Numbered from the stretch's first letter, positions 20,727 through 42,513 are shown. The stretch: DNA of 64,000 nt from an uncultured Zetaproteobacteria bacterium (GCA_964492895.1 CAZBLR010000002.1:41104-105103), one strand, 5' to 3'. Notes: generated from the sequence alone by a model not told the origin. A program made the numbers and translations.

Positions 20727-20784
20727 GCCGTCCGTCCGGCGGCGTTTGCGTCACGCCCGACCGGCAATTATCCTCCCTTGTTCG

Positions 20785-22155
<1,371 letters not shown>

Positions 22156-22179
22156 TCCTTCATCCCCTTTGATCCTGTT

Positions 22180-23136: not shown

Positions 23137-23618
23137 TCGACGTCGTCGTCGATGCGGGCGTGGACATGGGCCGGATGCCGGATGCGGTGCGGGTGGCGGA
23201 TGCGGTGCGTGCGGGCTGCGCCGTGGCCGGGGCATCCGCTGCAGACCCCGATCTGTGTGTCCGCTTTGCCGATGACGCTGCCGTACGCGAGCTGAACCGC
23301 GACTGGCGCGCCAGGGACAGCGTCACGGACGTGCTGTCCTTCCCGATGCAGGAGGGCGATATCGATGCCGCGGCATACCTCGGGGACATCGTCCTGGCCG
23401 TGCCGTATGTCGGGCGGGAGGCGGCGCGGCTGGCGCTGGCGCCTGCGGATCATGCGCTGCACCTGATCGTGCACGGCGTGCTGCATCTTCTGGGCTTTGA
23501 TCACGAGGACGATGCCGAGGCCGAACGCATGCAGGCGCTGGAGCGGCAGGCGCTGGCCCGGCTGGGATTGCACGATCCCTACCCGGGAACGGCGGAAGAG
23601 AGGGCACATGTGGGATAA
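23133..23618 (+). CDS. ybeY: rRNA maturation RNase YbeY
   Basis: The 161-aa product carries the zinc motif [11 protein letters not shown]. An ATGA overlap joins it to ybeZ. Confidence 0.9.
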
Positions 23619-24411: not shown

Positions 24412-24418
24412 GCCGACC

Positions 24419-25897
24419 ATGGCATTGATGTTCCATCGACGCAGCCGCAAGGCCGGCCCCCTGATCCTGGGCTTCGCCCTGGGGGCGCTGATGCCGTTCG
24501 CATATGCGCCCTACGGCCATGCCTGGCTAGGGGTGCTGGCACTGTCGGGCTGGCTGGCGCTGGCCAGGCGCGGCCATGCCGGATGGATCGGGCTGGCCTT
24601 CGGCCTCGGCTGGTTCGGCACCGGTGCCTGGTGGCTGGCGCCCACCTTCCATCTCTACGGCGGGCTGCCGTATGCCGTGGCAGCCTTGTGCGTGCTGCTC
24701 GTGGGCCTGGCGCTGGGCGCCTTCCCGGCCCTGTGGATGTGGGCGACGCAGGCCCTGACGAAACGGGACGCCTGGCTGCTGGTGACGTTCCCGGTGCTGG
24801 CGGTCGGCGAGGAATGGTTGCGCGGTCACCTGTTCACCGGGCTGCCGTGGACGGCACTGGGCGACCTGGTGCTGGGCACCCCGGGCGTGGGCTGGGCGGC
24901 CTGGGTGGGCGTGTACGGCGTGACCCTGCTGCCGGCGCTGGCGGCGGCGGCGCTGGCGCTGATCTGGCGGGGGGCGTACCGCTGGGGAGGGATCGGGCTG
25001 CTGGTGGTGCTGGCGCTGGGGCTGCTTGCCCCGAAGCCCTATGCCGCCGACGGGCCCGAGAGACAGGCGGCGCTGGTGCAGGCGAACATCCCGCAGGACG
25101 AGAAGTGGGATGCGGCCTTCGTCAACAGCATCATGCAGCGTTATGCGCAGTTGTCGGCGCTGGCGGCGGCGGGGCATCCCGATCTGATCATCTGGCCGGA
25201 GGCGGCGGTGCCGTTCTTCCTGTCGCGGGCGCCGGACTGGAACGCCTGGCTGCAGACGCAGATCCGGGCATGGAACGCGCCGCTGGTGTTCGGCGGCCTG
25301 AAGCTGATGAAGGACGGGGAGCACGGCGAGAACGGCGTGTTCCTGGCCATGCCGGATGGCGCCCGCAGCTTCGTCGGCAAGCAGCATCTGGTGCCGTTCG
25401 GCGAATACGTGCCGTCCTGGCTGCCGTTCCTGCATGCGCTGGTGCCGTCGATCGCCGAATGGACCCCCGGGACCGGCACGGGGGTGCTGCGCGGCCCGCG
25501 CGGCCCGCTGGGCATCCTCGTCTGCTACGAGTCGATCTTTCCGGAGCAGGCGCGGGAACGGGTGCGCTCGGGTGCGGACGTGCTGATCAACGTGACCAAC
25601 GACGCCTGGTACGGCCATAGCCCGGCCGCCTGGCAGTCGATGCAGGCGGCGCGCATGCGCGCCGTGGAAACCGGGCGCTACGTGCTCCGGGCGGCGAATA
25701 CCGGCGTCTCCGTGATCATCGCGCCCGACGGGCGGATCACGGCCACCCGCCCCTGGTGGACGGAGGGGCTGGTTCGGGGTACATATCGTGTGTCGGACCG
25801 CATCACGCCGTACGTGCGCTGGGGCGATAAGCCCTTGCTGGCCGGATTCGTGTTTCTGGCGCTGGCCGTGTGGTTCGATCGCAGGAGGAAGCACTAA
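24419..25897 (+). CDS. lnt: Apolipoprotein N-acyltransferase
   Basis: The 492-aa product has a multi-TM N-terminus and a nitrilase-like domain with catalytic Cys in ILVCYESIFPE. Confidence 0.9.
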   Translation: MALMFHRRSRKAGPLILGFALGALMPFAYAPYGHAWLGVLALSGWLALARRGHAGWIGLAFGLGWFGTGAWWLAPTFHLYGGLPYAVAALCVLLVGLALGAFPALWMWATQALTKRDAWLLVTFPVLAVGEEWLRGHLFTGLPWTALGDLVLGTPGVGWAAWVGVYGVTLLPALAAAALALIWRGAYRWGGIGLLVVLALGLLAPKPYAADGPERQAALVQANIPQDEKWDAAFVNSIMQRYAQLSALAAAGHPDLIIWPEAAVPFFLSRAPDWNAWLQTQIRAWNAPLVFGGLKLMKDGEHGENGVFLAMPDGARSFVGKQHLVPFGEYVPSWLPFLHALVPSIAEWTPGTGTGVLRGPRGPLGILVCYESIFPEQARERVRSGADVLINVTNDAWYGHSPAAWQSMQAARMRAVETGRYVLRAANTGVSVIIAPDGRITATRPWWTEGLVRGTYRVSDRITPYVRWGDKPLLAGFVFLALAVWFDRRRKH

Positions 25898-29119: not shown

Positions 29120-30281
29120 CGTCGTGCTGCTGGTGATCACCAGCGCCCTGACCTGCGCGCTACTGCTGGCTTACCTGCTGCGCCTGTTCCGGCTGCCGGC
29201 GGCCGTGGCCTATATCCTGACCGGCCTGATCCTCGGGCCTTCCGGCTTCGCCTTCGTCCGCGACCAGCAGATGGTGGCGCACATCGGCGAGCTCGGCGTG
29301 ATCATGCTGATGTTCTTCATCGGCATGGAGGTATCGCTGCCGCGGCTGATCGCCGGCTGGCGCATCGCCGTGCTCGGGGCGATGGCGCAGATGGCCGTCA
29401 GCGTGGCCGTATGCATGCTCGCCGCCGTACTGTTCGGCTGGCCGTGGAAGCTCGGCCTGCTGCTCGGCTTCATCATCAGCATGAGCTCGACGGCCGTGGT
29501 CATGGTCATGCTCAAGGATGCCAACGAGCTGGGCACCCCGTTCGGGCAGAATGCCCTGGGCGTGCTGTTGATGCAGGACATGGCCATCGTGCCGATCATG
29601 ATCGTGCTCGGCATGCTGGGGGACAACGGCGGGTCGGTGTCGTTCGTCAAGGTCGGCGGCCAGATGCTGGGCGGGGCGGCCCTGGTGGCCGTGGCCGTGT
29701 GGCTGATGCGCAGCCGGCGCCTGCGTATCCCGGTGTCCGGCGACATGTCGCTGGACCGCAAGGTGCTGCTCGGGCTGCTGCTGTGTTTCGCATCGGCCGC
29801 CGTCACCTCGGTGATGGGCCTGTCGGCCGCCTTCGGGGCCTTCCTGGCCGGCATGGTGGTGCATTCCTCCGACCAGGGCGTATGGGTGCGCGAGCATCTG
29901 GAATCGCTGCGCGTCGTGTTCGTGGCCATCTTCTTCCTGTCGATCGGCCTGTTGGTCGACATCCATTTCCTGGCCGGGCACCTGCTGTACCTGGCGGGGC
30001 TGACGATCGGCGTGTTCGTGCTGAACTCGGGCATCAACATGCTGGTGCTGCGCGGGCTCGGCGAATCCTGGGACATGGCCATCGTCACCGGCGGCCTGCT
30101 CAGTCAGATCGGCGAGTTCTCGTTCCTGCTCGCCGCCCTGGGGGTAGAGACGGGCATCCTGCCGCAGAGCGCCTACCAGACGGTGCTGGCGGTGATCGCG
30201 CTGACGCTGATGCTCAGCCCGATGTGGACGATGATGGTGCGCCGCATGCTGGGCGGCGAGGTGGCCCTGTCCGAGTCCTAG
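29109..30281 (+). CDS. Cation:proton antiporter (CPA2/Kef-type membrane domain, no RCK domain)
   Basis: The 390-aa product has about 11-12 TM segments. The N-terminal block is PAAVAYILTGLILGPSGF...ELGVIMLMFFIGMEV. Confidence 0.85.
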   Translation: MKLDVVLLVITSALTCALLLAYLLRLFRLPAAVAYILTGLILGPSGFAFVRDQQMVAHIGELGVIMLMFFIGMEVSLPRLIAGWRIAVLGAMAQMAVSVAVCMLAAVLFGWPWKLGLLLGFIISMSSTAVVMVMLKDANELGTPFGQNALGVLLMQDMAIVPIMIVLGMLGDNGGSVSFVKVGGQMLGGAALVAVAVWLMRSRRLRIPVSGDMSLDRKVLLGLLLCFASAAVTSVMGLSAAFGAFLAGMVVHSSDQGVWVREHLESLRVVFVAIFFLSIGLLVDIHFLAGHLLYLAGLTIGVFVLNSGINMLVLRGLGESWDMAIVTGGLLSQIGEFSFLLAALGVETGILPQSAYQTVLAVIALTLMLSPMWTMMVRRMLGGEVALSES

Positions 30282-30718
30282 GTCGGGGAAGCTCCGGTCT
30301 TCCTGCCCACGGCGGTGATGAAGCTGCGGATGTGCCGGTACAGGTCGTTGCGGGTGACCATGAAGGCCTCGATGATGTCCTCGACGTGGCCGCCCACCAG
30401 CAAGGGATCCGCGATGTCCCAGTGCAGGTACAGGGCGCCGTCCGCGTCCGGCCAGGCGGTGGCCGCATCGCCGATGGAGATGACCCAATCGAAGGCCTGT
30501 CCCGCGAAGGCGCTCACGGGCTTGCTCTGCATGCCGGCCATGTCGACGCTGAGGTGGCGCATCACCTCCTCGGCCATCGGGTGCACCGGCACCGGGGTCA
30601 GGCCGGCACTGCACACTTCGAAACGGTCTGCCGCCAGCGATGTCAGGATGGCCTCGGCCATCTGCGAGGCGCCAGCATTGGTCGTGCACAAAAACAGTAC
30701 GCGGGTCTTGTCAGCCAT
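30278..30718 (-). CDS. ArsC/LMW-PTP-fold protein with a degenerate catalytic loop
   Basis: It lies within ORF 30278..30796 and starts MADKTRVLFLCTTNAGASQMAEA. The P-loop is CTTNAGAS rather than CTGNSCRS, so the Arg is lost. The two downstream redox Cys residues are also absent (WVISIGDAATAWPDADG). Confidence 0.7.
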   Translation of the reverse strand: MADKTRVLFLCTTNAGASQMAEAILTSLAADRFEVCSAGLTPVPVHPMAEEVMRHLSVDMAGMQSKPVSAFAGQAFDWVISIGDAATAWPDADGALYLHWDIADPLLVGGHVEDIIEAFMVTRNDLYRHIRSFITAVGRKTGASPT

Positions 30719-30880
30719 GGCTTGAAGATACCAGCCGCACGTGCACTTGACGATGCCGACGGTGGGGCCGGGCCAGCATCCGCACACGCACGGCAAAGAC
30801 CAGATCGGTGCAGCCGGTGCCTTGCGTCACGTCATGTCCGGCCAGCGCTGGCTATGATGTCGATCGGTAAGGAGGGCACC

Positions 30881-31204
30881 ATGAAACATCTGCCGTTGAT
30901 CCTGTCCCTGTGTCTGGCCCTGTCCGCCTGCGCCACCGACGAGCAAACCCATGCCGCCGTCACGGGCGGTGCGGTCGGTGCGGCCGCCGGCGCCCTGATG
31001 AGTGATCAGCCCGTGGAAGGGGCGATCGTCGGCGGTGCCATCGGCGCCGCGACCGGTGCCGTACTGGCCGATCCCAACCGGCGGGGCGATCGCAGGGAAT
31101 ATCGCCGCGATCGTGGTTGGCATCGGGGCGAATACCGGCGTGATGAAGGGGATGATGGCTATCGCCATGATCGCCGTCGCGACGACGGCGAGGGCGATGA
31201 CTGA
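30881..31204 (+). CDS. Glycine-zipper lipoprotein with an Arg/Asp-rich tail
   Basis: The ATG at 30881 follows an AAGGAGGG SD. The lipobox is LALSAC and the Gly-zipper is GGAVGAAAGAL...GAIVGGAIGAATGAV. The C-terminus reads RRGDRREYRRDRGWHRGEYRRDEGDDGYRHDRRRDDGEGDD. It is the tail of a much longer spurious ORF in the track. Confidence 0.65.
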   Translation: MKHLPLILSLCLALSACATDEQTHAAVTGGAVGAAAGALMSDQPVEGAIVGGAIGAATGAVLADPNRRGDRREYRRDRGWHRGEYRRDEGDDGYRHDRRRDDGEGDD

Positions 31205-31235
31205 GGCCGGCTCCACCGGAGCAACATCGATTCCC

Positions 31236-31646
31236 TTACGCCACGAACGCCTCGATGCGGGCGCGGATCTGGTCGCGCACGCGCCGGAACTCGGCCATGA
31301 TCTGATTCTCGCTGCCCGTGGCCCTGGCCGGATCGTCGAACGGCCAGTGCTGTTTGGCGCAGGCGGCCGGCACCGCCGGGCAGGTCTCGTCGGCATGACC
31401 GCAGACCGTCACCAGCAGATCGAGATCGTCCAGCATCTGCGGCGTCACCACCTTCGAGGACTGGCCGCTGATGTCCACGCCGGCCTCACGCATCACGGCG
31501 ATGGCGCGCGGGTTCTGACCGTGCGCCTCGATGCCGGCGCTCATCGCCTCGAAGCGGTCGCCGGCGAGAAAGCGCAGCCAGCCCTCGGCCATCTGCGAGC
31601 GGCAGGAATTGCCGGTACACAGGAACAGCACGCGCGTCTTAGGCAT
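31236..31646 (-). CDS. arsC: Arsenate reductase, thioredoxin-coupled LMW-PTP type
   Basis: It starts MPKTRVLFLCTGNSCRSQMAEG. The canonical CX5R(S) loop, the Cys pair in VCGHADETCP and the Asp in WPFDDP are all present. It overlaps the ACR3 stop by 8 nt. Confidence 0.9.
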   Translation of the reverse strand: MPKTRVLFLCTGNSCRSQMAEGWLRFLAGDRFEAMSAGIEAHGQNPRAIAVMREAGVDISGQSSKVVTPQMLDDLDLLVTVCGHADETCPAVPAACAKQHWPFDDPARATGSENQIMAEFRRVRDQIRARIEAFVA

Positions 31647-32691
31647 GGTTTCCCTCCTGCGCCAGGGCATACCAGCCGCGCGTGCGGTTGACGATGCCGA
31701 CGACAGAGAGCATCACCGGCACCTCGACGAGTACGCCGACGACGGTGGCCAGTGCCGCTCCCGATTCGAAGCCGAACAGGGCGATGGCCGTGGCCACGGC
31801 CAGCTCGAAGAAGTTCGAAGCGCCGATCAGGGCCGACGGCCCGGCCACGCTGTGCGCGACGCCGAGCCTGCGATTCAGCCAGTAGGCCAGCATTGAATTG
31901 AAGTACACCTGCACCGTGATCGGCACGGCCAGCATCAGGATCACCAGCGGCTGGGCCAGGATCTCCCGACCCTGGAAGCCGAACAGCAGCACCACGGTGG
32001 CGATCAGCGCCGCCATCGAGGCCGGGTCCAAGCGATGCAGGACGTCGTCCAGCATGCCTTTCGCCAGCAGGATCCTGCGGCCCAGCCAGGCCAGCGCCAC
32101 CGGGATGACGATGTACAGCAGCACCGACAGCAGCAGCGTGTCCCAGGGCACGTGGATGCGGGCCACCCCGAGCAGCAGGCCGACGATGGGGGCGAAGGCG
32201 AAGATCATGATCACGTCGTTTAGCGCCACCTGGGACAGGGTGAACTGCGGGTGGCCGCCAACCAGCCGGGACCAGACGAACACCATGGCCGTGCACGGGG
32301 CGGCGGCCAGCAGGATCAGGCCGGCGATGTAGGAATCGATCTTCGCCGCGTCGAGGTAGGGGGCGAACAGCAGGCGGATGAACAGGTAGCCGAGCAGTGC
32401 CATCGAGAACGGCTTGACCAGCCAGTTGACGGCCAGCGTCACGCCGATGCCGCGCCGGTGCTGCCACACCTCGTGCAGCGCCGAATAATCGATCTTCAGC
32501 AGCATCGGCAGGATCATGGCCCAGACCAGCGCCGCTACCGGCAGGTTGATGTGCGCGACCTGCAGATCGCCGAGCGTGTGGAACAGGGCGGGGAATCGCT
32601 CGCCGAGGCCGATGCCGGCTACGATGGCGAGCAGCACCCAGGCGCTGAGATAGCGGGCGAAGATGCCCATGGGTTTGTTTTCTTTGCTCAT
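31639..32691 (-). CDS. acr3: Arsenite efflux permease, ACR3 family
   Basis: It lies within ORF 31639..32757 and starts MSKENKPMGIFARYLS. It has about 10 TM segments and the conserved block LILLAAAPCTAMVFVWS. Confidence 0.9.
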   Translation of the reverse strand: MSKENKPMGIFARYLSAWVLLAIVAGIGLGERFPALFHTLGDLQVAHINLPVAALVWAMILPMLLKIDYSALHEVWQHRRGIGVTLAVNWLVKPFSMALLGYLFIRLLFAPYLDAAKIDSYIAGLILLAAAPCTAMVFVWSRLVGGHPQFTLSQVALNDVIMIFAFAPIVGLLLGVARIHVPWDTLLLSVLLYIVIPVALAWLGRRILLAKGMLDDVLHRLDPASMAALIATVVLLFGFQGREILAQPLVILMLAVPITVQVYFNSMLAYWLNRRLGVAHSVAGPSALIGASNFFELAVATAIALFGFESGAALATVVGVLVEVPVMLSVVGIVNRTRGWYALAQEGNHA

Positions 32692-32781
32692 GGCCGTATC
32701 ATATCCGTTCATCCAAATATGTAAATTTTTTCTGCCGGGGTGAAACCCCGGTGTCACAATGCCCCCCTAAGCTTCGGCGGC

Positions 32782-34512
32782 ATGATGCAGTGGTTCCGTA
32801 CAAATGCGTCCGTAGCTCTGATGGTTCTGGGAGCCATCATTGGCCTGTGGCTTCTCCGCAAGCTGTGGGTCCGCCTGAGGCTGTCGCGCGCCAAGCATCC
32901 ATCGTTGCGCGGTCATGCCCGCTGGTCGCGGCGGGTGGCCCGGCTGGTCCCGTTCTTCGCGTACGACGAGCAGCGTTTTTACAGCTGCGATGGTGCCCCG
33001 GAGGCGGTCAGTCGGCAACGTCGCCTGGCCTTCGCGGAGCTGGCGGCACGCCTGCAGCAGCAGGCCCCGGCAAGCATTGCGTTCAGCGAGTCGCTGGCGT
33101 CCTCGATCTCGGACGTCCAGTTCACCGATGCCTACCGCGTGCCCTTTCCCTTCCGCAACCATGTGCGCCGGCACCTGAAGCTGGGCAGTGTGGTCGAGGA
33201 AACGGCCGATGTGCGCGTCAGGGACCTGGACGGCAACTGGCGATACGACCTGACCGGCGCCTACGGCGTCAACGTCTTCGGGTACGACTTCTACAAGGCA
33301 TGCATGGAACAGGGCTGGGAGATGGTTCGGGGGCTGGGGCCGGTGCTCGGTCCGTATCACCCGGTGATCCGCGACAATGCCGAGCGGCTCAAGGCGATCT
33401 CGGGGCAGGGCGAGGTGTCCTTCCACATGTCCGGCACCGAGGCGGTGATGCAGGCGGTGCGCATGGCCCGCTACCACACCGGCCGCACGCACCTGGTCAT
33501 GCTGTGCGGGGCCTATCACGGCTGGTGGGACGGCGTGCAGCCCGGCGTAGGCGGTGAGCGCCGGACCGACGACGTCTACATGCTGCGGGACATGCACGAG
33601 GCGACGCTGAAGGTACTGGAAACCCGGCACGACATCGCCTGCGTGCTGATCAATCCGCTGCAGTCGCTGCATCCGAACGCCGGGGCGGCCAGCGACGGCT
33701 CGCTGATCGCCAGCGACCGGCGGGCGGGCCTGGACCGCGAAGCCTATGCGGCGTGGCTCAAGAGGATCCGGGACGTCTGCAGCCGCCGCGGCATCGTATT
33801 GATCTTCGACGAGGTGTTCACCGGCTTCCGGCTGGCCCACCGCGGGGCCCAGGCGTACTTCGGCGTGCAGGCGGATCTCGTGACCTACGGCAAGACCCTG
33901 GGCGGCGGCCTGCCGGTCGGCGTGCTGTGCGGCAGCCATGCCCTGATGAGGCGTTTCCGGGACGAGCAGCCGCTGAACATCAGCTTCGCCCGCGGCACCT
34001 TCAATTCGCACCCCTTCGTCATGGCGTCGATGAACGCCTTCCTGCAGCGCATCGAGGCGCCCGAAATCCAGCAGCAGTACGCCGGGCTGGAGGCGCAGTG
34101 GAACGCGCGCGTCGAACGGCTGAACCGGCGCCTGGAGGCGGAGGGATTGCCGGTGCGCATCGCCCATCTGGTGTCGATCTGGACGATCCTGTACACCCGC
34201 CCTTCGCGCTACAACTGGATGTACCAGTACTACCTGCGCGCCGAGGGCATCGCCCTGAGCTGGGTCGGCAGCGGGCGCGTGATCATGAGCCACAACTTCG
34301 ATGATGCGGCCTTCGACGAGGTCGTCGAACGCTTCGTGCGTGCGGGCCGGGCGATGCAGGACGGCGGCTGGTGGTGGCCGCGGCCGGGGATGACCGACAA
34401 GGCCATCAAGCGGCAGCTGCTGCGCGAGATGGTGACGGCGCGCCTGCCGCTTCTGGCCCGCTTCTGGCGGGAGCCGCTGGCGCCCGAACCGACGGGGAGA
34501 GACGCGCCATGA
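32782..34512 (+). CDS. Membrane-anchored class-III PLP aminotransferase/aminomutase (HemL-like)
   Basis: This is ORF 32740..34512. An N-terminal TM helix (VALMVLGAIIGLWLL) is followed by a long linker. HemL-like blocks are HMSGTEAVMQAVRMAR, IFDEVFTGFRL and the PLP-Lys region TYGKTLGGGLPVG. The start at the ATG doublet 32782/32785 is uncertain. Confidence 0.8.
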   Translation: MMQWFRTNASVALMVLGAIIGLWLLRKLWVRLRLSRAKHPSLRGHARWSRRVARLVPFFAYDEQRFYSCDGAPEAVSRQRRLAFAELAARLQQQAPASIAFSESLASSISDVQFTDAYRVPFPFRNHVRRHLKLGSVVEETADVRVRDLDGNWRYDLTGAYGVNVFGYDFYKACMEQGWEMVRGLGPVLGPYHPVIRDNAERLKAISGQGEVSFHMSGTEAVMQAVRMARYHTGRTHLVMLCGAYHGWWDGVQPGVGGERRTDDVYMLRDMHEATLKVLETRHDIACVLINPLQSLHPNAGAASDGSLIASDRRAGLDREAYAAWLKRIRDVCSRRGIVLIFDEVFTGFRLAHRGAQAYFGVQADLVTYGKTLGGGLPVGVLCGSHALMRRFRDEQPLNISFARGTFNSHPFVMASMNAFLQRIEAPEIQQQYAGLEAQWNARVERLNRRLEAEGLPVRIAHLVSIWTILYTRPSRYNWMYQYYLRAEGIALSWVGSGRVIMSHNFDDAAFDEVVERFVRAGRAMQDGGWWWPRPGMTDKAIKRQLLREMVTARLPLLARFWREPLAPEPTGRDAP

Positions 34513-37187
34513 TCGATTTCATCCACAGCCAGGGCATGGGCGAGTTCCGCCAGTCGCTGTACCGGGAGCTCAAGGGCTACCTCGACGAGCAGCGGTTGCA
34601 GAGCGATCCGGCCAACTGCCTCAGGCTGGACATGCACTGCCACGATAAGAACAGCGACGTGCCGGACGAGCTGTGGGGGCGCATCCTGGGCCTGCCGGAA
34701 ACCTGGCTGAAGACCGGCAAGCTGGTGAAATGCCTGAAGGGCAACGGCTGCGACGTCATCACCGTGACCAACCACAACAACGCCCGCTCGTGCTGGGAGC
34801 TGCGCGACAAGGGCGAGGATGTACTGGTCGGTGCGGAGTTCACCTGCCACTTCCCCGAGTACCAGCTGTTCGTGCACGTGCTGGCCTACGGCTTCACGCC
34901 GGAGCAGGAGGCGGAACTCAACCGCCGGCGCGAGAACATCTACGGCTTCGTGCGCTATGCCGCGGCCGAGGACATCCCGCTGGTGCTGCCGCATCCGATG
35001 TATTTCTATACGCGCAACGACCATATCGACCTGGAGCTGTTCGAGAAGCTGGCCGTGCTGTTCGAGCGCTTCGAGCTGGTCAACGGCCAGCGCGACCAGT
35101 GGCAGAGTGTGCTGACGCTGAACTGGATCCGCGGCATCACGCCCGAGAAGATCCGCGACTGGGCGGCCAAGCATGACCTGGATCCGGCCGAGTTCGGCGT
35201 CGATCCGGAGCGGCCCAAGGTGATGACGGGCGGCTCGGACGACCACATGGGCATTTTCGCTGGCGAGTGCGGTTCGCTGCTGCACGTGCCCGACCTGGCC
35301 GAGCGCCTGAAGACGCAGAAGCCGTCGGAACTGGCGCTCGAGGCGATCCGGGCCGGTCGCATCCGCCCGTACGGCAGCGTCGGCGAGAACCAGCGCCTGA
35401 ACATCGCCCTGCTCGACTATTTCGCGCAGGTGGCGACGCACATCAAGGATCCGGGGCTGCTGCGCATCCTGTTCCACCGCGGCGAGACCTCGGACAAGGT
35501 GGCCTGCTTCACGATCAGCAACCTGATGCTGGAGATGCGGAAGCACAAGAACACCCAGAAGTTCTACGACGCCATCCACGGCGCCCTGCACGGCAAGAAG
35601 GTCAAGAAGCTGGTCAAGTGGAACGCCAAGAAGGACTACCGCTTCTGCATCGACTACCTGGAGCAGATCGCCGAAAGCAGGAACAAGTCCCCCGAGGCCT
35701 TCATGGCCACGGTCAGCCGTGCCATCCCCGAACTCATCGCCGGCCTGAGCCGGTTGATCATCTCGCGTCTGGAGAAATCGGGGCTGGGCGGCTCGAAGCA
35801 CAAGCTCAGCAAGCTCACCAGCGAGGAGATCGTGCGGCATTTCGAGGTCCCGAGCCAGCTGACTTCGCTGGTGTTCGGCAGCGACAGCCGGCAGGCGGGC
35901 CTGAGCAAGCTGAATGTCAGCATGGTGCTCGACAGCCTGTCCTTCCCGGTGCTGGTCAGCATCGTGCTGCTGGGAACGTCGATGGGCAGCACGCGCCTGC
36001 TGTACCAGAACCGCCAGTTCCTGAACGATTTCGCCGATCACATCGGCAACAGCCATTTCCCCCGGCGTGCCCTGTACCTGACGGATACGCTGCGCGACAA
36101 GAACGGCGTCTCCAGCTCGCTGAGCGGCAAACTTGCGGAGATCCAGCGCCAGGACCTGCCCATCGACTTCCTGATCTGCCACGCCGACGCGGCGCCGGAA
36201 CCGCACCTGCACGTGGTGCGGCCGCTGACCAGCTTCTCGTTCCCGGACCTCGGCGAGCAGGAGCTGCGCGTGCCCGACGTCATGGAGATCGCCCGCATCT
36301 TCTACGAGGGCGGCTACGACCGCATCGTCTGCTCCACCGAGGGGCCAATGGCCATCATGTCGCTGCTGATCAAGCACATGTTCAACGTGCCCAATTACTT
36401 CTTCATGCATACCGACTGGCTGGACTTCATCAAGGACAATACCGACCTGAACCAGCACGAGCGGGACCGCATCCGCCGGGCCCTGCGCTTCTTCTACAAG
36501 CTGTACAAGGGCGTGTTCGTGCTCAACAACGACCATCGCGACTGGCTGATCGGGCACGAGATGCAGCTCGACGAGGACGCCGTGATGCTGACGGCCCACC
36601 ACACGCAGCCGCGCGATGCGGGCGTGACGCCGGTCGACAAGTCCGCGCTGTTCCCCGATGCCGGCGCCGACACGCCGGTGTTGCTGGCGGCCGGTCGCCT
36701 GAGCCGGGAGAAGGGCATCTTCGACTTGCCCGGGATCATGGCGCGGGTACGGGAGCGCCTGCCGGATGCGCGCCTCGTGGTCGCCGGAACCGGCCCGGCC
36801 GAAGCCGAGCTGAAGAAGCAGCTGCCGGATGCGCTGTTCCTCGGCTGGGTCGACAAGCCGCGCATCCGCGAGCTCTATGCCGGCCTCGACCTGTTCGTGT
36901 TCCCGTCCCGCTTCGACACCTTCGGCAACGTCGTGCTCGAAGCCTTCACCTACGGCATGCCGGTGGTCGCCTACAACTGCAAGGGGCCGAAGGACATCAT
37001 CGAGGATGGGAGCAGCGGCTATCTGGTCGACGACGTGGTCGGGATGGGCGAACGCATCACGGGCTTCTTCGCCGACGATGCGGCTCGCCAGGCCATGCGC
37101 GAGCAGGCCATGCGCCGCAGCCAGGCCTACCAGGCGGAACCGATCATGCAGCGCTTCCTGATCGATCTGGGGCTGGCCGATGCATAA
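34509..37187 (+). CDS. PHP-domain phosphoesterase fused to a GT4 (GT-B) glycosyltransferase (892 aa)
   Basis: It lies within ORF 34371..37187, and its ATG at 34509 overlaps the upstream stop (ATGA). PHP motifs are LDMHCHDKNSD, VTNHNN, AEFTCH and GGSDDHMG. A hydrophobic mid-segment reads LSFPVLVSIVLLGTSMG. The C-terminal GT4 block is FVFPSRFDTFGNVVLEAFTYGMPVVA. Confidence 0.8.
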   Translation: MIDFIHSQGMGEFRQSLYRELKGYLDEQRLQSDPANCLRLDMHCHDKNSDVPDELWGRILGLPETWLKTGKLVKCLKGNGCDVITVTNHNNARSCWELRDKGEDVLVGAEFTCHFPEYQLFVHVLAYGFTPEQEAELNRRRENIYGFVRYAAAEDIPLVLPHPMYFYTRNDHIDLELFEKLAVLFERFELVNGQRDQWQSVLTLNWIRGITPEKIRDWAAKHDLDPAEFGVDPERPKVMTGGSDDHMGIFAGECGSLLHVPDLAERLKTQKPSELALEAIRAGRIRPYGSVGENQRLNIALLDYFAQVATHIKDPGLLRILFHRGETSDKVACFTISNLMLEMRKHKNTQKFYDAIHGALHGKKVKKLVKWNAKKDYRFCIDYLEQIAESRNKSPEAFMATVSRAIPELIAGLSRLIISRLEKSGLGGSKHKLSKLTSEEIVRHFEVPSQLTSLVFGSDSRQAGLSKLNVSMVLDSLSFPVLVSIVLLGTSMGSTRLLYQNRQFLNDFADHIGNSHFPRRALYLTDTLRDKNGVSSSLSGKLAEIQRQDLPIDFLICHADAAPEPHLHVVRPLTSFSFPDLGEQELRVPDVMEIARIFYEGGYDRIVCSTEGPMAIMSLLIKHMFNVPNYFFMHTDWLDFIKDNTDLNQHERDRIRRALRFFYKLYKGVFVLNNDHRDWLIGHEMQLDEDAVMLTAHHTQPRDAGVTPVDKSALFPDAGADTPVLLAAGRLSREKGIFDLPGIMARVRERLPDARLVVAGTGPAEAELKKQLPDALFLGWVDKPRIRELYAGLDLFVFPSRFDTFGNVVLEAFTYGMPVVAYNCKGPKDIIEDGSSGYLVDDVVGMGERITGFFADDAARQAMREQAMRRSQAYQAEPIMQRFLIDLGLADA

Positions 37188-37290
37188 GGCCATGCGCCCA
37201 CGCCTGCCGAAGCGTCTGCCCCGGCCCAGGCGCTGGCCGATGCGCCGGCGCGGGCCGCGGCCACTGCATGCGCTGAGCTGGCGCGAGCGC

Positions 37291-38127
37291 ATGAATTTCC
37301 TGGTGACCAACCGCGTGCCGCGCAAGGCGCTGACGCACTGGATGGGATGGTACAGCGGCATCGAGAGCCCGCGGCTGACGCGCGTGTCCATCCGTGTCTG
37401 GCGCCTGTTCGCACGCGACCTGGATCTGAAGGAGTCGAAACACCGCGTCTTCACCAGCCTGCACGACTGCTTCGTGCGCGAGCTCAAGGACGGGGCGCGT
37501 CCGGTCGATCCGCGGCCCGGCATCGTGGTCAGCCCCTGCGATGCCATCGTCGGCACCTGCGGCACCATCGAAGGGACGACGGTGTACCAGGCCAAGGGAT
37601 TCCCGTACGAGCTGGCGGAGTTGATCCCCGATCCCGGGCTGCGCGAGCGCTACCGCGACGGCGTCTACGTCACGCTGCGCCTGAAATCGAGCATGTACCA
37701 CCGCTTCCATGCCCCGGTGGATTGCGAGGTGCGGGCCATCGACTACATCTCCGGCGACACCTGGAACGTCAACCCGCCGGCGCTCAAGCGCATCGAGAAG
37801 CTCTATTGCCGCAACGAGCGGGCCGTGGTGCCCCTGCACGGCGAGGACGGGGAGAACGACATCATGCTGGTGCCGGTCGCCGCCATCCTCGTGGCCAGCA
37901 TGCGTTTCCATTGCCTGGAAAACGATCTGAACCTGCGGTATCGCGGCCCGAACCGCCTTTCCTGTTATGCGCAGTTCCGCAAGGGCGACGAGATGGGGTA
38001 CTTCCGGCACGGCTCGACCATCATCCTGTTCGCCACCCATCGCTACGCCCTGTGCCCGCACGTGCACAGCGGCATGCATATCCGCATGGGCGAGGCCCTG
38101 TTGACCACAGCGGGGCACGCATCGTGA
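37291..38127 (+). CDS. psd: Phosphatidylserine decarboxylase-like pyruvoyl enzyme (short form)
   Basis: It lies within ORF 37180..38127. PSD blocks are LRLKSSMYHRFHAPVD and the self-cleavage-type motif FRHGSTIILF. The ATG at 37291 was preferred. An alternative ATG at 37180 overlaps the upstream stop but would add an Arg/Pro-rich extension. Confidence 0.8.
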   Translation: MNFLVTNRVPRKALTHWMGWYSGIESPRLTRVSIRVWRLFARDLDLKESKHRVFTSLHDCFVRELKDGARPVDPRPGIVVSPCDAIVGTCGTIEGTTVYQAKGFPYELAELIPDPGLRERYRDGVYVTLRLKSSMYHRFHAPVDCEVRAIDYISGDTWNVNPPALKRIEKLYCRNERAVVPLHGEDGENDIMLVPVAAILVASMRFHCLENDLNLRYRGPNRLSCYAQFRKGDEMGYFRHGSTIILFATHRYALCPHVHSGMHIRMGEALLTTAGHAS

Positions 38128-38200
38128 CCAGCTCCTGACATGCGACTGACACCGGCATGTCACATGCCGGGGCGAGCGTTGGCCGAAATACCTTCGGGGG

Positions 38201-38833
38201 ATGACTACCATGGAAATCATGCAGGAACTGCGCAAGCAGCGCTGGGACGACCACCGCTTCTACCACCAGAACCGTATCAATCAGACCCTGCACCTGTGGA
38301 GTGCCATGTGTTTTGTCACCAGCTACGTGTGGCTGTTTTTCGATCCGGCCATGGCCGTGCTGTTCGGCTGGGTGATCGGCCAGCTGCCCCGCCAGGCCGG
38401 GCACTTCTTCTTCGAGTCGCATGATTTCGACGAGGTCAACCAGGCCACGCACGAATACAAGGAGAGCGTCAAGCCCGGCTACAACCTGAAGCGCAAGGTG
38501 GTGCTGCTCTCCATCTGGATCGGGGGTTCGATCCTGCTGTATCTCGAGCCTTCGCTGTGGGGCCTGCTCAGCGCGGAGCAGGTGGCCCAGGGCTTTTTGC
38601 ACAATCTCGGCATGTACTGGCTGGCCGTGACCGTCGGCGCCCTGCTGTTCCGCACGTTCCAGCTCATGTTCAAGGTGAATGTCCGGCATGGCCTCGCATG
38701 GTTCGTCAAGATCCTCACCGATCCGTTCCACGACATCATGATCTACTACAAGGCGCCGTATTACCTGCTGAAGGGCGAGATGTTCGACGACATGAGCCAC
38801 TGGTACGACAAGTCCCTGCAGACCGGTGTATAA
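38201..38833 (+). CDS. DUF962/Mpo1-like membrane protein
   Basis: The 210-aa product carries the signature spacing Y-H-x4-N-x3-H (FYHQNRINQTLHLWS). Hydrophobic segments follow, and FFFESHDF and DPFHD motifs are present. The family assignment was made by eye. Confidence 0.55.
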   Translation: MTTMEIMQELRKQRWDDHRFYHQNRINQTLHLWSAMCFVTSYVWLFFDPAMAVLFGWVIGQLPRQAGHFFFESHDFDEVNQATHEYKESVKPGYNLKRKVVLLSIWIGGSILLYLEPSLWGLLSAEQVAQGFLHNLGMYWLAVTVGALLFRTFQLMFKVNVRHGLAWFVKILTDPFHDIMIYYKAPYYLLKGEMFDDMSHWYDKSLQTGV

Positions 38834-38893
38834 GGCAGTCCTCCGGGGAGGCGGGGCTTGCCGCCTTCCCGACTTTCCCGTCCGGAATCAGCC

Positions 38894-40069
38894 ATGAGCA
38901 AGAAGATCACCGTCGTCGGCGCCGGCTACGTCGGACTGTCGAACGCCATCCTGCTGGCCCAGCATCACGAGGTCGTGGTGCTGGACATCTGCGCGGAGCG
39001 GGTGGACATGGTCAATCGCCGCCATGCGCCGATCGTGGATGCCGAGATCGAGGACTACCTGCAGAACCGGCCGCTACGGCTTTCGGCGACGCTGGACCGG
39101 CAACAGGCCTACCAGGGTGCCGATGTCGTCATCATCGCCACGCCGACCGACTACGACCCGGAATCGAACTACTTCAACACCGGCTCGGTGGAATCGGTGA
39201 TCCGGGATGTCATGCAGTACAATCCAGAGGCGCTGGCGGTCATCAAGTCGACCGTGCCCGTCGGCTTCACCGCCCAGGCGCGCGCGCGCTTCGGCTGCGA
39301 GCGCCTGATCTTCTCGCCGGAGTTCCTGCGCGAGGGCAAGGCGCTGTACGACAACCTGCACCCCTCCCGCATCATCGTCGGCGACGATTCGGACGCAGCC
39401 AGGCAGTTCGCCGGCATGCTGGTCGAGGGCGCCATCGACAAGGACGTGCCGGTGCGCTTCACCGGCGCCACCGAGGCCGAGGCGATCAAGCTGTTCGCCA
39501 ACACGTATCTCGCCATGCGCGTCGCCTATTTCAACGAGCTGGACTCCTACGCCCTGGCGCACGGGCTGGATACGCGCCAGATCATCGAGGGCGTGGGCCT
39601 GGACCCGCGCATCGGCGGCCACTACAACAACCCCTCGTTCGGCTACGGCGGCTACTGCCTGCCCAAGGACACGCAGCAGCTGCTGGCCAACTACTTCGAG
39701 GTACCGCAGAACCTGATCCGCGCCATCGTCGATGCGAACAACACGCGCAAGGACTTCATCGCCCAGGACATCCTGAAGCGCAAGCCCGGCGTGGTCGGCG
39801 TCTACCGCCTGGTCATGAAGTCGGGCTCCGACAATTTCCGGGCCTCGTCGGTGCAGGGCGTGATGAAGCGCATCAAGGGCAAGGGCGTCGAGGTCATCGT
39901 GCACGAACCGGTGTTCGGCGATGCGCATTTCTTCCATTCGCGCGTCGTCAACGATCTCGCCGCCTTCAAGGACGAGGCCGACGTCATCATCGCCAACCGC
40001 ATGGACGCGGACCTGGCCGATGTCGCGCACAAGGTCTACACCCGCGACCTGTTCGGCTGCGACAGCTGA
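38894..40069 (+). CDS. ugd: UDP-glucose 6-dehydrogenase
   Basis: It lies within ORF 38858..40069 and starts [18 protein letters not shown]. Blocks seen are [17 protein letters not shown] and the catalytic Cys region [10 protein letters not shown]. Confidence 0.9.
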
Positions 40070-40236
40070 GTCGGCGTCAATCGCTGGGCACGGGACATGA
40101 ATCGCCCGGGCTAAGGGGGAATTATTCCCCACCCTTCGGCACAGGGTATTCCCTATAACGGGCTGGAAATAAGCTAAGTGTTCGTTCTTACGTGATTTCA
40201 CGTGTCACATCCGATGACTCGGATATGACACATAAG

Positions 40237-40277
40237 CCTCCCTAGGTTCGCTAAATCACATCACGCACCTAGGGAGG
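40237..40277 (+). promoter_or_regulatory. Hairpin sequestering the SD in the 5' leader of the TonB-dependent receptor gene
   Basis: A perfect 10-bp stem pairs CCTCCCTAGG (40237-40246) with CCTAGGGAGG (40268-40277), with a 21-nt loop. The 3' arm holds the only SD-like element (AGGGAGG), 13 nt upstream of the ATG at 40291. Confidence 0.4.
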
Positions 40278-40290
40278 CCTAGTAATTAGT

Positions 40291-42513
40291 ATGTATCGAT
40301 CTCTGAAAAAATCAATGCGCACGGCGCTGTTCGCGAGCCTGTGCACGCTTATCGGCGTGCCGGCCGCGTGGAGCGCCCAGTCGTCCGTCGACATCGGCAC
40401 GGTGCAGGCGACGGCAACCGGAAACGGCAACGGCACGGCCAACGATACCGCGGCCGGCAATGCACCCTCGAAGACCCCGCTGCACGTCTCGCAGCCGACG
40501 TCGGTGGTCAGCAAGAAGTTCATCCAGAACAACGTGGTTCCGTCCAGCAACTACGACGAAACGGTCAAGCACACGCCCAGTGTCGCCGCCATCGCCCCCA
40601 ACGGCCCCGGCCTGATGGAGAACATGGGCATGAGTATCCGCGGCTTCCAGGACGGGCAGTTCAACGTCACCTTCGACGGCATGCCGTGGGGCGACTCCAA
40701 CGACTTCACGCATCACACGACGTCGTATTTCATGTCGCACGACATCACGCAGGCCTCCGTGGACCGCGGCCCGGGTACGGCGGCCACGGTGGGCGAGGCG
40801 ACCTTCGGCGGCACCATCAGCCTGCAGTCGCGCGATCCCGGCACCACGACCTCGATCAACCCCTATGCGACGTTCGGCAGCTGGAACACCCAGCTGTACG
40901 GCCTCGAATTCGATACCGGCGTCATGCCCAATTACCACGGCATGTCGGCCCTGTTCGACTTCGAGAAGCTGACGTCGGACGGCTATCTGACCAACGCCGG
41001 CCAGCGCCGCGAGAACATGTTCATCAAGGCGATGAGCCCGGTCAGCGACGAGACGACCGTCACGGTTGCCGCCATGTACAACCAGGTCAACCAGAACGTG
41101 CCGGCCGGCAAGTCGATGGCCCAGATCGCCCAGAAAGGATGGAACTGGGGCCTGAGCAACGACCCGACCCAGGAAAACTACGCCGGCTACAACTACGACA
41201 ACATCCACACGGATTTCGAGTACATCGACCTGCAGTCCTACCTGGGCAACGAGTGGAACCTGGACAACAAGCTGTACACCTTCGGCTACTATCATAACGG
41301 CGCCAACGGCAACGATCCCAGCGGCCTGTCGCGCAACGGCCTGGATACGACCGGCGGCGGCGGTACCGTGATCTACGGCGGCGCCTACGCCAACGACGCC
41401 ATCGGCCAGAAGATGGAGATGATGTACCGCTCCGTCGGCGATTTCTTCCGCCTGGCCAAGGGCACGAGCATCGGCACCATCAACATGGGCCTGTGGTACG
41501 AGCACCAGTACAACGACCGCTACGAGTACGACGTCAACTGGACGCTGGGCGGGGTCCGCATGGCCAACCTCGCGGGTTCCGGTGCCCCGGCATGGAACCG
41601 CCTGATGCACGACACCTTCGACAATGCCCAGCCCTACGTGGAGCTGGCCTGGAAGGTCACCCCGAACCTGACCGTCACGCCCGGCGTCAAGTACGCCTGG
41701 TTCCAGCGCCACCTGAACGCCACGGTGAACCAGAAGACGGGCGCGCCGCTGGTCTACACCAAGTCCTGGTCCTCGGTGCTGCCGGCCCTGGATATCCACT
41801 ACAAGATCCAGCCCGGCTGGGTGGCCTACGCCCAGGTGGCGAAGGGCTTTTTGGCGCCGAATCTGAACACGTTCTACGTGACCAATCCGTCCGCCAGCGA
41901 CTTCAAGCCTGAGCAGACCTGGAACTATCAGGTCGGCACCACGTGGAACAGCAAGCGCCTGACCCTGTCGGCCGACGCCTACTACATCGACTTCAACAAC
42001 CTGGTCGGCAGCAAGAACGTCGGCGGCGTCACGGTGTTCTACAACAACGGCGGCGTGATCTACAAGGGTCTCGAAGCCGAGGGCACCGTGTATGTCGGCG
42101 ATGGGTTCAGCGTCTATGCCAACGGCAGCGTGAACAGCGCCAAAACCAAGGATACGAAGCAGTGGGTGCCGTATGCACCGGACGCCACGGCCGCGGGCGG
42201 CATCCTGTACGACCACAACGGCTGGAACGCCTCGCTGATGGACAAGTACATCGGCAAGAGCTACGGCGATGTCGGCCAGGCCTATCCGATCAGCGCCTAC
42301 GGCGTGATGGACGGGACGCTCGGCTACACCCTGGCGGGTGACGACGCACCGGGCTGGCTGCAGAAGGCCCGGATCAACCTGCAGGTCAACAACGTGCTGG
42401 ACAAGAAGGGCATCAGCACCTTCTTCGGCAACGCAGGGGATTCCGCCGGTACGCCTTTGTACTGGACCATCCCGGAGCGCAGCTACTTCGTGACCCTGTC
42501 GGCGCATCTCTGA
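40291..42513 (+). CDS. TonB-dependent outer-membrane receptor
   Basis: The 740-aa product has a signal peptide (ASLCTLIGVPAAWSA) and a TonB-box-like DIGTVQATAT. A plug domain (SIRGF...DGMPWGD) and a beta-barrel with many aromatic-ended strands follow. Confidence 0.9.
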   Translation: MYRSLKKSMRTALFASLCTLIGVPAAWSAQSSVDIGTVQATATGNGNGTANDTAAGNAPSKTPLHVSQPTSVVSKKFIQNNVVPSSNYDETVKHTPSVAAIAPNGPGLMENMGMSIRGFQDGQFNVTFDGMPWGDSNDFTHHTTSYFMSHDITQASVDRGPGTAATVGEATFGGTISLQSRDPGTTTSINPYATFGSWNTQLYGLEFDTGVMPNYHGMSALFDFEKLTSDGYLTNAGQRRENMFIKAMSPVSDETTVTVAAMYNQVNQNVPAGKSMAQIAQKGWNWGLSNDPTQENYAGYNYDNIHTDFEYIDLQSYLGNEWNLDNKLYTFGYYHNGANGNDPSGLSRNGLDTTGGGGTVIYGGAYANDAIGQKMEMMYRSVGDFFRLAKGTSIGTINMGLWYEHQYNDRYEYDVNWTLGGVRMANLAGSGAPAWNRLMHDTFDNAQPYVELAWKVTPNLTVTPGVKYAWFQRHLNATVNQKTGAPLVYTKSWSSVLPALDIHYKIQPGWVAYAQVAKGFLAPNLNTFYVTNPSASDFKPEQTWNYQVGTTWNSKRLTLSADAYYIDFNNLVGSKNVGGVTVFYNNGGVIYKGLEAEGTVYVGDGFSVYANGSVNSAKTKDTKQWVPYAPDATAAGGILYDHNGWNASLMDKYIGKSYGDVGQAYPISAYGVMDGTLGYTLAGDDAPGWLQKARINLQVNNVLDKKGISTFFGNAGDSAGTPLYWTIPERSYFVTLSAHL

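Follow-up and report, generated by a model that had tools for sequence, protein, structure and literature searches.

Where phosphate is scarce, marine and soil bacteria adapt in large part by substituting phosphorus-free lipids for phospholipids, which also alters susceptibility to antibiotics and phages; the known route depends on PlcP. Here we describe a five-gene block, at positions 32782-40069 of a 64-kb stretch of DNA from an uncultured Zetaproteobacteria bacterium (GCA_964492895.1, CAZBLR010000002.1:41104-105103; the whole 64,000 nucleotides are called the window below), that may carry out a related replacement with different enzymes. In the PlcP-Agt operons of SAR11, roseobacters, Agrobacterium and Pseudomonas, a Pho box stands before a phosphoesterase and a GT4 retaining glycosyltransferase (PMC4796936, PMC8231724). 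Specifically, plcP is found beside btaAB or the GT4 gene agt, behind Pho boxes (PMC4796936), and Agt and GTcp are GT4 retaining enzymes that transfer from UDP-Glc or UDP-GlcA onto diacylglycerol (PMC8231724).

The block shares with these operons the Pho box, the pairing of a phosphoesterase with a GT4 retaining glycosyltransferase, the link to UDP-glucose or UDP-glucuronate and the occasional presence of btaA and btaB alongside. Its expected output, predicted here from genes alone, would likewise be a glucosyl- or glucuronosyl-diacylglycerol that replaces phospholipid. We see about an even chance that it is a PhoB-type phosphate-starvation operon for membrane-lipid renovation, built around a PHP-GT4 core enzyme. 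The kind of system is a known one, i.e., Pho-regulated replacement of phospholipid by glycolipid; what is new is a PHP phosphoesterase fused to the glycosyltransferase, together with a conserved trio of genes that includes a divergent paralogue of phosphatidylserine decarboxylase (PSD). An earlier note on this DNA had recognised no precedent for the gene set, a view that the parallels with PlcP-Agt lipid renovation do not bear out. The five genes are:

Gene 1, 32782-34512, plus strand: membrane-anchored pyridoxal phosphate (PLP) enzyme of the class-III fold.
Gene 2, 34509-37187, plus strand: fusion of a PHP phosphoesterase, a helical linker and a GT4 glycosyltransferase of the GT-B fold.
Gene 3, 37291-38127, plus strand: proenzyme of a PSD-family pyruvoyl decarboxylase; a start at 37291 is likelier than one at 37180.
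Gene 4, 38210-38833, plus strand: Mpo1-like/DUF962 membrane protein of 207 amino acids; 38210 is the likeliest start.
Gene 5, 38894-40069, plus strand: UDP-glucose 6-dehydrogenase (UGD) of 391 amino acids, a lineage-specific accessory of the module.

All five open reading frames are present and co-directional, and they are as tightly packed as the earlier note had described: genes 1 and 2 overlap by the ATGA at 34509-34512, and the spacers between genes 2 and 3, 3 and 4, and 4 and 5 measure 103, 82 and 60 nt, against the gaps of about 60-100 nt given there.

To compare gene order we scanned the relatives of gene 2 in one genome per species and fetched 80 loci, 66 of which had enough flanking DNA to be evaluated. 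Genes 1-2-3-4 occur in the same order and on the same strand in 61 of these 66; among the exceptions gene 2 stands alone in four and the cassette is interrupted by a gap in one. In L065, too, gene 2 stands alone, but the upstream flank is too short for this fifth locus to be counted among the 66. Identities across loci are 53-73% for all four proteins, the gene 2 orthologues being 60-92% identical over their full length, while the flanking genes differ between genomes and are not conserved. The cassette is carried by Zetaproteobacteria and by many Gammaproteobacteria, among them Paraglaciecola, Colwellia, Psychromonas, Marinobacter, Nevskia, Halieaceae, Cycloclasticus and Methylococcales, and also by a few metagenome-assembled genomes (MAGs) labelled Binatia, Margulisiibacteriota or Flavobacteriales. 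Carriers available in culture include Marinobacter metalliresistant CuT 6, Nevskia soli DSM 19509, Paraglaciecola arctica BSs20135, Psychrosphaera saromensis and Aliikangiella maris. Cassettes about 62% identical to that of the window are found in four MAGs labelled Flavobacteriales, Margulisiibacteriota, Binatia and Rhodospirillales (L026, L043, L045 and L054), and these labels suggest either horizontal transfer or binning errors. A protein identical to that of gene 2 is recorded in two metagenome assemblies only, and a full-text search of the literature found no paper on this cassette.

Genes 1-4 are a real unit, grouped far beyond chance, and gene 5 is an optional partner. The five-gene unit proposed earlier, for which a neighbourhood check had been suggested, is therefore upheld for genes 1-4 and fails for gene 5, since UGD adjoins the cassette in only 4 of the 80 fetched loci, co-directionally in L017 and L023 and convergently in L035 and L038. 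Beyond these four, UGD adjacency is seen in L081-L083 and L089 and in none of the other loci examined. The proposed link to a UDP-glucuronate donor fares similarly: the adjacency recurs but is not universal. Within the window's own lineage UGD is fixed. In an 85%-identical relative, genes 1-5 are all present but the genomic surroundings differ. UGD is identified by several models: TIGR03026 scores 325 bits against a cut-off of 189.8, PF03721, PF00984 and PF03720 all match, and NF011631 gives E 1e-198 with 660 bits, just below the 757-bit equivalog cut-off.

Gene 2 also occurs without genes 1, 3 and 4, both in stand-alone loci and in distant clades, whereas the trio is confined to the proteobacterial clade whose members are at least 60% identical. 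Because gene 2 alone is found behind a Pho box (see below) and its family is wider than the trio, we regard gene 2 as the core and the trio as an add-on; gene 2 would then appear to be functionally self-sufficient. Its protein of about 900 amino acids has three parts:

PHP phosphoesterase domain, about residues 36-290, nt 34614-35378, plus strand: assigned by fold and metal-ligand pattern.
Hydrophobic helix within the helical linker, residues 470-488, nt 35916-35972, plus strand: conserved in the family.
Retaining GT4 glycosyltransferase domain of the GT-B fold, residues 520-892, nt 36066-37184, plus strand: assigned by Pfam and Foldseek.

The C-terminal domain is a straightforward match to PF00534/PF13692 (E about 1e-28). 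Sequence models and PDB profiles miss the N-terminus, so the PHP domain is seen only by fold comparison: the Pfam PHP family (PF02811) has no match in the window's protein and reaches E 0.03 in 2 of 8 homologues, a profile of the whole of gene 2 retrieves only GT4 proteins from the PDB, and an N-terminal profile retrieves none. The distant relatives do give weak PHP and PHP_C matches. With a model of residues 1-300 (predicted local distance difference test, pLDDT, 60), every one of the top 10 Foldseek matches is a PHP protein (E 4e-5 to 1e-2); they include RNase AM, BAD_1165, Cv1693, BVU_3505 and the PHP domains of PolC/PolIII. The pattern HxH...D...H...E...H...H...DxH is invariant in the family, with H43, H45, D50, H89, E110, H123, H162, D244 and H246 invariant or nearly so and assigned to metal ligands by inspection. 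On a model of low confidence, these data support a PHP fold with His, Asp and Glu metal ligands, and the fusion of PHP and GT4 domains described in the earlier note stands. Pfam finds no metallophosphoesterase of the PlcP type in gene 2.

Structurally, the GT-B domain is nearest to BshA, MshA, sucrose-phosphate synthase (SPS) and PimA/PimB by Foldseek. Among NCBIfam models it matches BshA at E 2e-17 and, weakly, lipopolysaccharide (LPS) galactosyl- and GlcNAc-transferases, and it matches no specific equivalog. With residues 1-520 as the query, HMMER found 521 representative clusters at E <= 1e-10; this N-terminal region is seen in Zetaproteobacteria, Alteromonadales, Marinobacter, Halieaceae, Nevskia, methanotrophs and others. 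The distant clades (780-920 amino acids) retain the fusion, and the best 120 matches to residues 1-520 contain only full-length fusions and no split versions.

The second line of evidence is the promoter. We analysed the 250 nt upstream of gene 1 in 52 orthologous loci by k-mer enrichment followed by site alignment; the enriched words are of the type TGTCA(C/T), and the derived pattern is nTG(A/C)AA(C/T)-N4-nTGTCA(C/T)-N10-TAnnnT. The elements found in the window are:

Pho-box-like direct repeat TGAAAC-cccg-G-TGTCAC, 32741-32757, plus strand: in the -35 position of the gene 1 promoter.
-10 hexamer TAAGCT, 32768-32773, plus strand: exactly 10 nt past the box, with the ATG 8 nt further on.
Second Pho-box-like repeat TGACAC-cggc-A-TGTCAC, 38147-38163, plus strand: upstream of gene 4, one of two matches in the window.

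The strict box lies on the gene strand in 21 of the 52 upstream regions, the window included, where about 0.2 would be expected; the background in the same loci is 0.0034 per 250 nt, and shuffled controls have a mean of 0.054 sequences. At all 21 sites the T, A and final T of the -10 hexamer are invariant and at the fixed distance of 10 nt, although these positions lie outside the search pattern, and a TG extended -10 element is common. If only two phased half-sites are required, 34 of 52 regions qualify, compared with 2.7% of random windows (about one expected). Loci from Alteromonadales have three to four tandem 11-bp repeats instead of the strict box. Scans with the exact consensus of the E. 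coli Pho box and the Fur box, allowing up to 3 mismatches, gave few matches. In PhoB promoters the box takes the place of the -35 element, 10 bp upstream of the -10. The motif of the window and its orthologues also fits the definition of the PHO box as two 7-nt direct repeats 4 nt apart, the unit best conserved in E. coli being CTGTCAT (PMC4415409). We infer that the operon is probably regulated by PhoB in phosphate starvation.

The short distance to the ATG means that the gene 1 mRNA may be leaderless or that the true start codon may lie elsewhere; the geometry between -10 and ATG is similar in L083. The box before gene 4 overlaps a perfect 8-bp hairpin at 38152-38170 (CCGGCATG-tca-CATGCCGG), and the same motif is found upstream of gene 4 in L004, L016, L017, L018 and L021, which suggests an internal phosphate-responsive promoter. 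The box also stands before the stand-alone gene 2 in L005, L067 and L076, and in L005 before an OlsF-like gene.

Genomic contexts give the third line of evidence. OlsF-type acyltransferases make ornithine or other aminolipids, and a bifunctional enzyme of this type (PF19576 plus GNAT PF13444, about 585 amino acids) lies beside the cassette in eight loci (L003 at 8101-9858, L005-L008, L010, L012 and L073), directly downstream and co-directional in three of them. A patatin-like phospholipase is found beside the cassette in two loci and a START-like lipid-binding protein in one, while the upstream neighbours of gene 1 are lineage-specific and uninformative. No LPS core or lipid A gene recurs next to the cassette. 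An unannotated family of membrane proteins of about 270 amino acids, with no Pfam match, is also present in eight loci on either side and strand (L007 at 6287-7132, L011, L016, L019, L021, L022, L069 and L074).

The distant relatives of gene 2 are more telling. In L086 (5007-14252) a 45%-identical PHP-GT4 protein is encoded divergently from a DUF3419 gene and an S-adenosylmethionine-dependent methyltransferase gene, a pair that we take, from the family PF11899, to be btaA/btaB-like and to make the betaine lipid diacylglyceryltrimethylhomoserine (DGTS). Nearby are a phosphoglucomutase and a GT4 protein of the size of Agt (337 amino acids, with an N-terminus like that of monoglucosyl-diacylglycerol synthase), to which the gene 2 GT domain is 26% identical; the region looks like an island for phosphorus-free lipids. 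A 50%-identical copy of this small GT4 lies about 3 kb upstream of the cassette in L073. The PHP-GT4 relative of L088 is followed by a phosphate-porin-like and a purple-acid-phosphatase-like gene, that of L089 is preceded by UGD with an alkaline phosphatase nearby, and that of L084 is followed by an MMPL lipid transporter. These arrangements are those reported for plcP. Synteny, membrane anchoring and the lipid-enzyme neighbours together support the earlier claim that the genes work as one module in membrane-lipid or glycoconjugate chemistry, and the suggestion that its product may be free of phosphate gains strong, if indirect, support from the conserved Pho box and from the phosphate-starvation contexts of the distant PHP-GT4 relatives.

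The scheme that we infer, including every substrate and the order of the steps, is as follows. Gene 2 would be a two-step enzyme located at the inner membrane, on its cytoplasmic face. Its PHP domain would strip the phosphate or phospho-head group from phosphatidate or phospholipid to leave diacylglycerol, and the GT4 domain would then glycosylate this diacylglycerol with UDP-glucose or UDP-glucuronate to give glucosyl- or glucuronosyl-diacylglycerol. Gene 5 would supply the UDP-glucuronate where it is present, as in the window's lineage. As a fused analogue, not a homologue, of the PlcP and Agt pair, gene 2 would differ from it in three respects: PlcP is a calcineurin-type Mn metallophosphoesterase whereas gene 2 has the PHP fold; gene 2 joins both activities in one chain through a 230-residue helical hydrophobic linker; and the aminotransferase, the PSD paralogue and the Mpo1-like protein have no counterpart in PlcP-Agt operons.

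These three partners are membrane proteins or associate with the membrane; hydrophobic or amphipathic membrane elements occur in all four proteins of genes 1-4. Gene 1 has a single N-terminal hydrophobic, transmembrane helix (residues 7-25, by hydropathy) followed by a conserved basic juxtamembrane segment, RLRLSRAKH, and from the charge distribution around the helix its catalytic domain would be cytoplasmic. PF00202 matches at E 3e-32 (112 bits, cut-off 30.5). Among solved structures the closest is that of the MycA (mycosubtilin synthase) aminotransferase domain (6kfm, E 9e-49 over 384 residues), to whose motif the PLP lysine, Lys371 in YGKTLGGG, is aligned; other PDB matches are HemL (about 1e-31) and sugar C-6' aminotransferases. 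The class-III PLP fold and the lysine motif YGK(T/I)(L/I)GGG are shared with MycA and HemL, but compared with MycA gene 1 is a stand-alone protein with a transmembrane anchor and the basic segment, and it has no carrier-protein partner. The earlier description of gene 1 as membrane-anchored and HemL-like is right about the anchor and the fold. HemL models are its top NCBIfam matches, but the likeness is one of fold only and HemL itself is rejected, with scores far below the cut-offs (TIGR00713, 153 vs 527 bits; NF000818, 154 vs 398 bits). We also considered a phosphoethanolamine phospho-lyase, which is unsupported, the nearest relatives being HemL and MycA-type enzymes.

Gene 3 is a clear member of the PSD family, as had been claimed, with PF02666 at E 8e-55 (186 bits, cut-off 22), TIGR00163 above its cut-off (154.6 vs 111.75 bits) and an HGST motif at 38008-38019, the GST itself at 38011-38019. 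It aligns with E. coli Psd (7cnw/6l06; PMC7952604) at E 2e-25 from the N-terminal membrane helices onward, and shares with it the PF02666 fold, the amphipathic N-terminal helices, the Asp90-His144-Ser254 triad, the Gly-Ser-Thr site and the hydrophobic acyl surface. The equivalents of Asp90, His144 and Gly-Ser-Thr are kept in all 66 orthologues, and the acyl-chain surface is mostly hydrophobic. The proteins are nevertheless only about 30% identical, and the head group contacts are replaced: the phosphate and carboxylate (phosphoserine) contacts of E. coli Psd include Tyr137 and Ser166 (PMC7952604), which in 66 of 66 orthologues have become Arg and Asn, residues 127 and 159 in gene 3 numbering. 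Gene 3 also has Met for Asp142 and His for Leu252 (E. coli numbering throughout). It differs from E. coli Psd, too, in standing behind a promoter of the phosphate-starvation type and in sharing at least one genome with a canonical psd. This genome is the Methylococcales MAG of L018, where a gene at 11004-11882 (minus strand), about 1.2 kb downstream of the cassette, encodes a protein 49% identical to E. coli Psd that keeps Tyr137, Asp142 and Ser166. Because this canonical psd is on the same contig, gene 3 is an extra paralogue in L018 and not the housekeeping enzyme. The earlier note had named a gene 3 that is simply the sole housekeeping psd as a finding against the pathway, and L018 answers this point.

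Gene 4 matches PF06127 weakly (E 8e-4, 19.9 bits, against a gathering cut-off of 24 bits), but it has 5,681 detectable relatives, many of which carry PF06127 or are named Mpo1-like or DUF962. Residues H18, H22, H31, H68, E72, H177 and D178 are invariant in the alignment (numbering from 38201). Like yeast Mpo1, a 2-hydroxy fatty acid dioxygenase of PF06127, it is a small multi-pass membrane protein with conserved histidines; it differs in falling below the Pfam gathering threshold and in a C-terminal half that is specific to its family. Our literature search found no tested function for any bacterial Mpo1-like/DUF962 member.

What the trio does can be proposed only tentatively. It is possible, though on balance doubtful, that genes 1, 3 and 4 form an undescribed head-group route in which a PSD-family enzyme acts outside housekeeping synthesis of phosphatidylethanolamine (PE), either as a catabolic dismantling of phosphatidylserine (PS) and PE or in making a new amine-bearing, phosphorus-free stand-in for PE. 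For the catabolic version we suggest, with low confidence, that the trio dismantles aminophospholipid head groups and so feeds the PS/PE pool to gene 2. Gene 3 would convert PS to PE, gene 1, as a class-III enzyme of the omega-amine type, would convert the amine of PE to an aldehyde, and gene 4, as an Mpo1-like Fe-dioxygenase, would take off what is left of the head group, a C2 unit, by alpha-oxidation, so that the PHP domain receives phosphatidate. Class-III (omega-amine) aminotransferases take primary amines, such as that in the PE head group. Speculative as it is, this order would place every domain in a chemically coherent line and would account for the membrane location of all the proteins.

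Several points weigh against lipid renovation, and against this role of the trio. The dismantling scheme requires an aldehyde oxidation step for which there is no dedicated gene, and it offers no explanation for the replaced phosphate and carboxylate contacts of gene 3; the aminotransferase domain of MycA, moreover, aminates beta-ketoacyl thioesters and does not deaminate amines. For gene 2, the closest PHP structures belong to phosphoesterases that act on nucleotides or RNA, and we know of no PHP enzyme that acts on lipids. The nearest GT structures (BshA, MshA and SPS) use soluble acceptors, often phosphorylated, and the glycosyltransferase is likened to Agt and GTcp by GT4 family and fold. 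The two structure models are of modest quality, with pLDDT of 68 and 60. Finally, other regulators of the OmpR family likewise bind 11-bp direct repeats.

The alternative that survives best is the one put forward in the earlier note, namely that the operon makes a novel polar lipid without phosphorus, with both a hexuronic acid and an amine on its head group. Here the GT4 domain would make a glucuronosyl- or glycosyl-diacylglycerol, the Mpo1-like protein would oxidise a hydroxyl, the aminotransferase would install the amine, and the PSD-type enzyme would decarboxylate a serine-like head group on a lipid other than a phospholipid. The Pho box and the lipid contexts apply equally to such a pathway, and the linkage of UGD to the module suits it, though most loci have no adjacent UGD. 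Known pairs of an oxidase and a class-III aminotransferase turn sugar hydroxyls into amines, and C-6' aminotransferases are among the PDB matches of gene 1; however, Mpo1 chemistry is the oxidative decarboxylation of 2-hydroxy acids, not the oxidation of alcohols. The replaced polar contacts and hydrophobic acyl surface of gene 3 are what one would expect for a lipid with a different polar part, but a pyranose uronic acid cannot have an amine on the carbon beside its carboxylate, which leaves the pyruvoyl decarboxylase, an enzyme type that needs an alpha-amino acid, with no obvious substrate, and no gene in the block could join serine or any other alpha-amino acid to a glycolipid. We consider this reading unlikely. 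A related comparison is with the Arn pathway (Ugd, ArnA, ArnB, ArnC and ArnT), in which UGD, oxidative decarboxylation, an aminotransferase and glycosyl transfer likewise lead to an amine-bearing lipid modification; its aminotransferase is of the DegT/ArnB type rather than class III as in gene 1, and its regulation is of the PmrA rather than the Pho type. An Arn-like pathway was rejected, since homologues of ArnA, ArnC and ArnT are absent.

It is less likely still that gene 2 is a synthase-phosphatase that makes a soluble glycoside, with the GT4 domain glycosylating a small phosphorylated acceptor, the PHP domain removing the phosphate, and the trio modifying or supplying the aglycone. What speaks for this is the resemblance of the GT domain to BshA, MshA and SPS, including the NCBIfam match to BshA at E 2e-17, along with the facts that PHP enzymes are mostly small-molecule phosphomonoesterases and that synthase-phosphatase fusions are common. 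The SPS/SPP (sucrose-phosphate synthase and phosphatase) and MshA/MshA2 systems do combine a GT4 domain of the GT-B fold with a phosphatase and include the nearest GT structures, but their phosphatases are of the HAD type whereas that of gene 2 is of the PHP type, and gene 2 and its partners are membrane-associated and found in lipid-related contexts. A soluble product is hard to square with partners that are all membrane-bound or membrane-associated, with the conserved hydrophobic helix of gene 2 itself and with neighbours that are lipid enzymes or transporters (OlsF-like, patatin-like, btaA/btaB-like and MMPL); a phosphate-starvation promoter is also ill-suited to a role in making compatible solutes.

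It is more improbable again that the operon remodels a glycoconjugate of the envelope, for instance lipid A or the inner core of LPS, under phosphate starvation. The PHP domain would strip a sugar phosphate and the GT4 domain would put glucuronate in its place, for which E. coli WaaH, adding glucuronate, is a PhoB-regulated precedent. The Pho box and the UGD link fit this proposal too, and GT4 includes LPS core transferases, with weak NCBIfam matches of the domain to LPS galactosyl- and GlcNAc-transferases. Against it, LPS core and lipid A genes do not recur beside the cassette, and core remodelling has no use for a PSD-type enzyme whose surface binds acyl chains. Both this and the soluble-glycoside proposal are weaker than the lipid readings, given that glycerolipid and aminolipid enzymes are the neighbours that recur.

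That there is no pathway at all, and the block is a housekeeping psd among unrelated co-directional neighbours, is very improbable and is largely refuted by synteny: gene 3 does pass the generic PSD model TIGR00163 and the flanking genes do vary among genomes, but in loci of different classes genes 1-4 stay in order (61 of 66) whereas those flanks do not, the whole block moves between genomic contexts, a canonical E. coli-type psd coexists with the cassette in L018, and a promoter motif is shared.

The surroundings of the block are as follows. The 90 nt 5' of gene 1 are a divergent promoter region shared with a minus-strand ACR3 arsenite carrier gene, whose sigma-70-like promoter lies at 32725-32698 within the common intergenic region. 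This ACR3-type carrier, matching the SBF family, belongs to a divergent arsenic-resistance cluster (30278-32757, minus strand) together with two ArsC-like genes of the low-molecular-weight phosphatase type. On the other side, the next operon begins with a 221-nt leader (40070-40290) with a minimum free energy of -82.4 kcal/mol (z -4.1 vs shuffles), so that both the divergent promoter region and the structured leader reported earlier are present. The leader has two long hairpins at about 40202-40231 and 40236-40277, matches no Rfam family and precedes a TonB-dependent receptor gene (40291-42513); the operon that follows looks like iron uptake, with ExbB, TonB, a ferric-type ATP-binding cassette (ABC) binding protein and permease, and an OFeT permease.

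Inside the five-gene block we found no canonical terminator. The spacer between genes 2 and 3 (37188-37290) is very GC-rich, and 37188-37293 folds at -65.6 kcal/mol (z -2.8), with no shuffle equally stable. Between genes 4 and 5 there is an 11-bp GC-rich hairpin (38844-38871, plus strand) without a proper U-tract, whereas in L083, the 85%-identical relative, the same place holds a clean terminator, a hairpin followed by UUUU (z -3.5). Because of this hairpin, a terminator in the relative and lacking its U-tract here, UGD may be only partly co-transcribed with genes 1-4. The GC content of the cassette is 0.61-0.68, near the overall range of the window, with the end comprising genes 4 and 5 among the lowest values. 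The window is chromosomal, as it includes a housekeeping cluster at 20695-25897 (miaB, phoH-like ybeZ, corC and lnt), SMC (12990-16454, minus strand) and glyS (17148-20036, minus strand). A weak Pfam match to 'GT4-conflict' was dismissed, since PADLOC matched no defence model to any of the five proteins.

Beside the PlcP route, the cassette points to a second, unrelated and widespread solution to phosphate scarcity. It offers lipid biochemists a defined four-gene target with culturable carriers and oceanographers a new marker gene for phosphorus stress, and it gives a first functional lead for the bacterial Mpo1-like proteins and for a divergent PSD subfamily. If the catabolic version of the trio is correct, the PHP-GT4 enzyme could turn the main phospholipid pool into phosphorus-free glycolipid and recover both phosphate and nitrogen.

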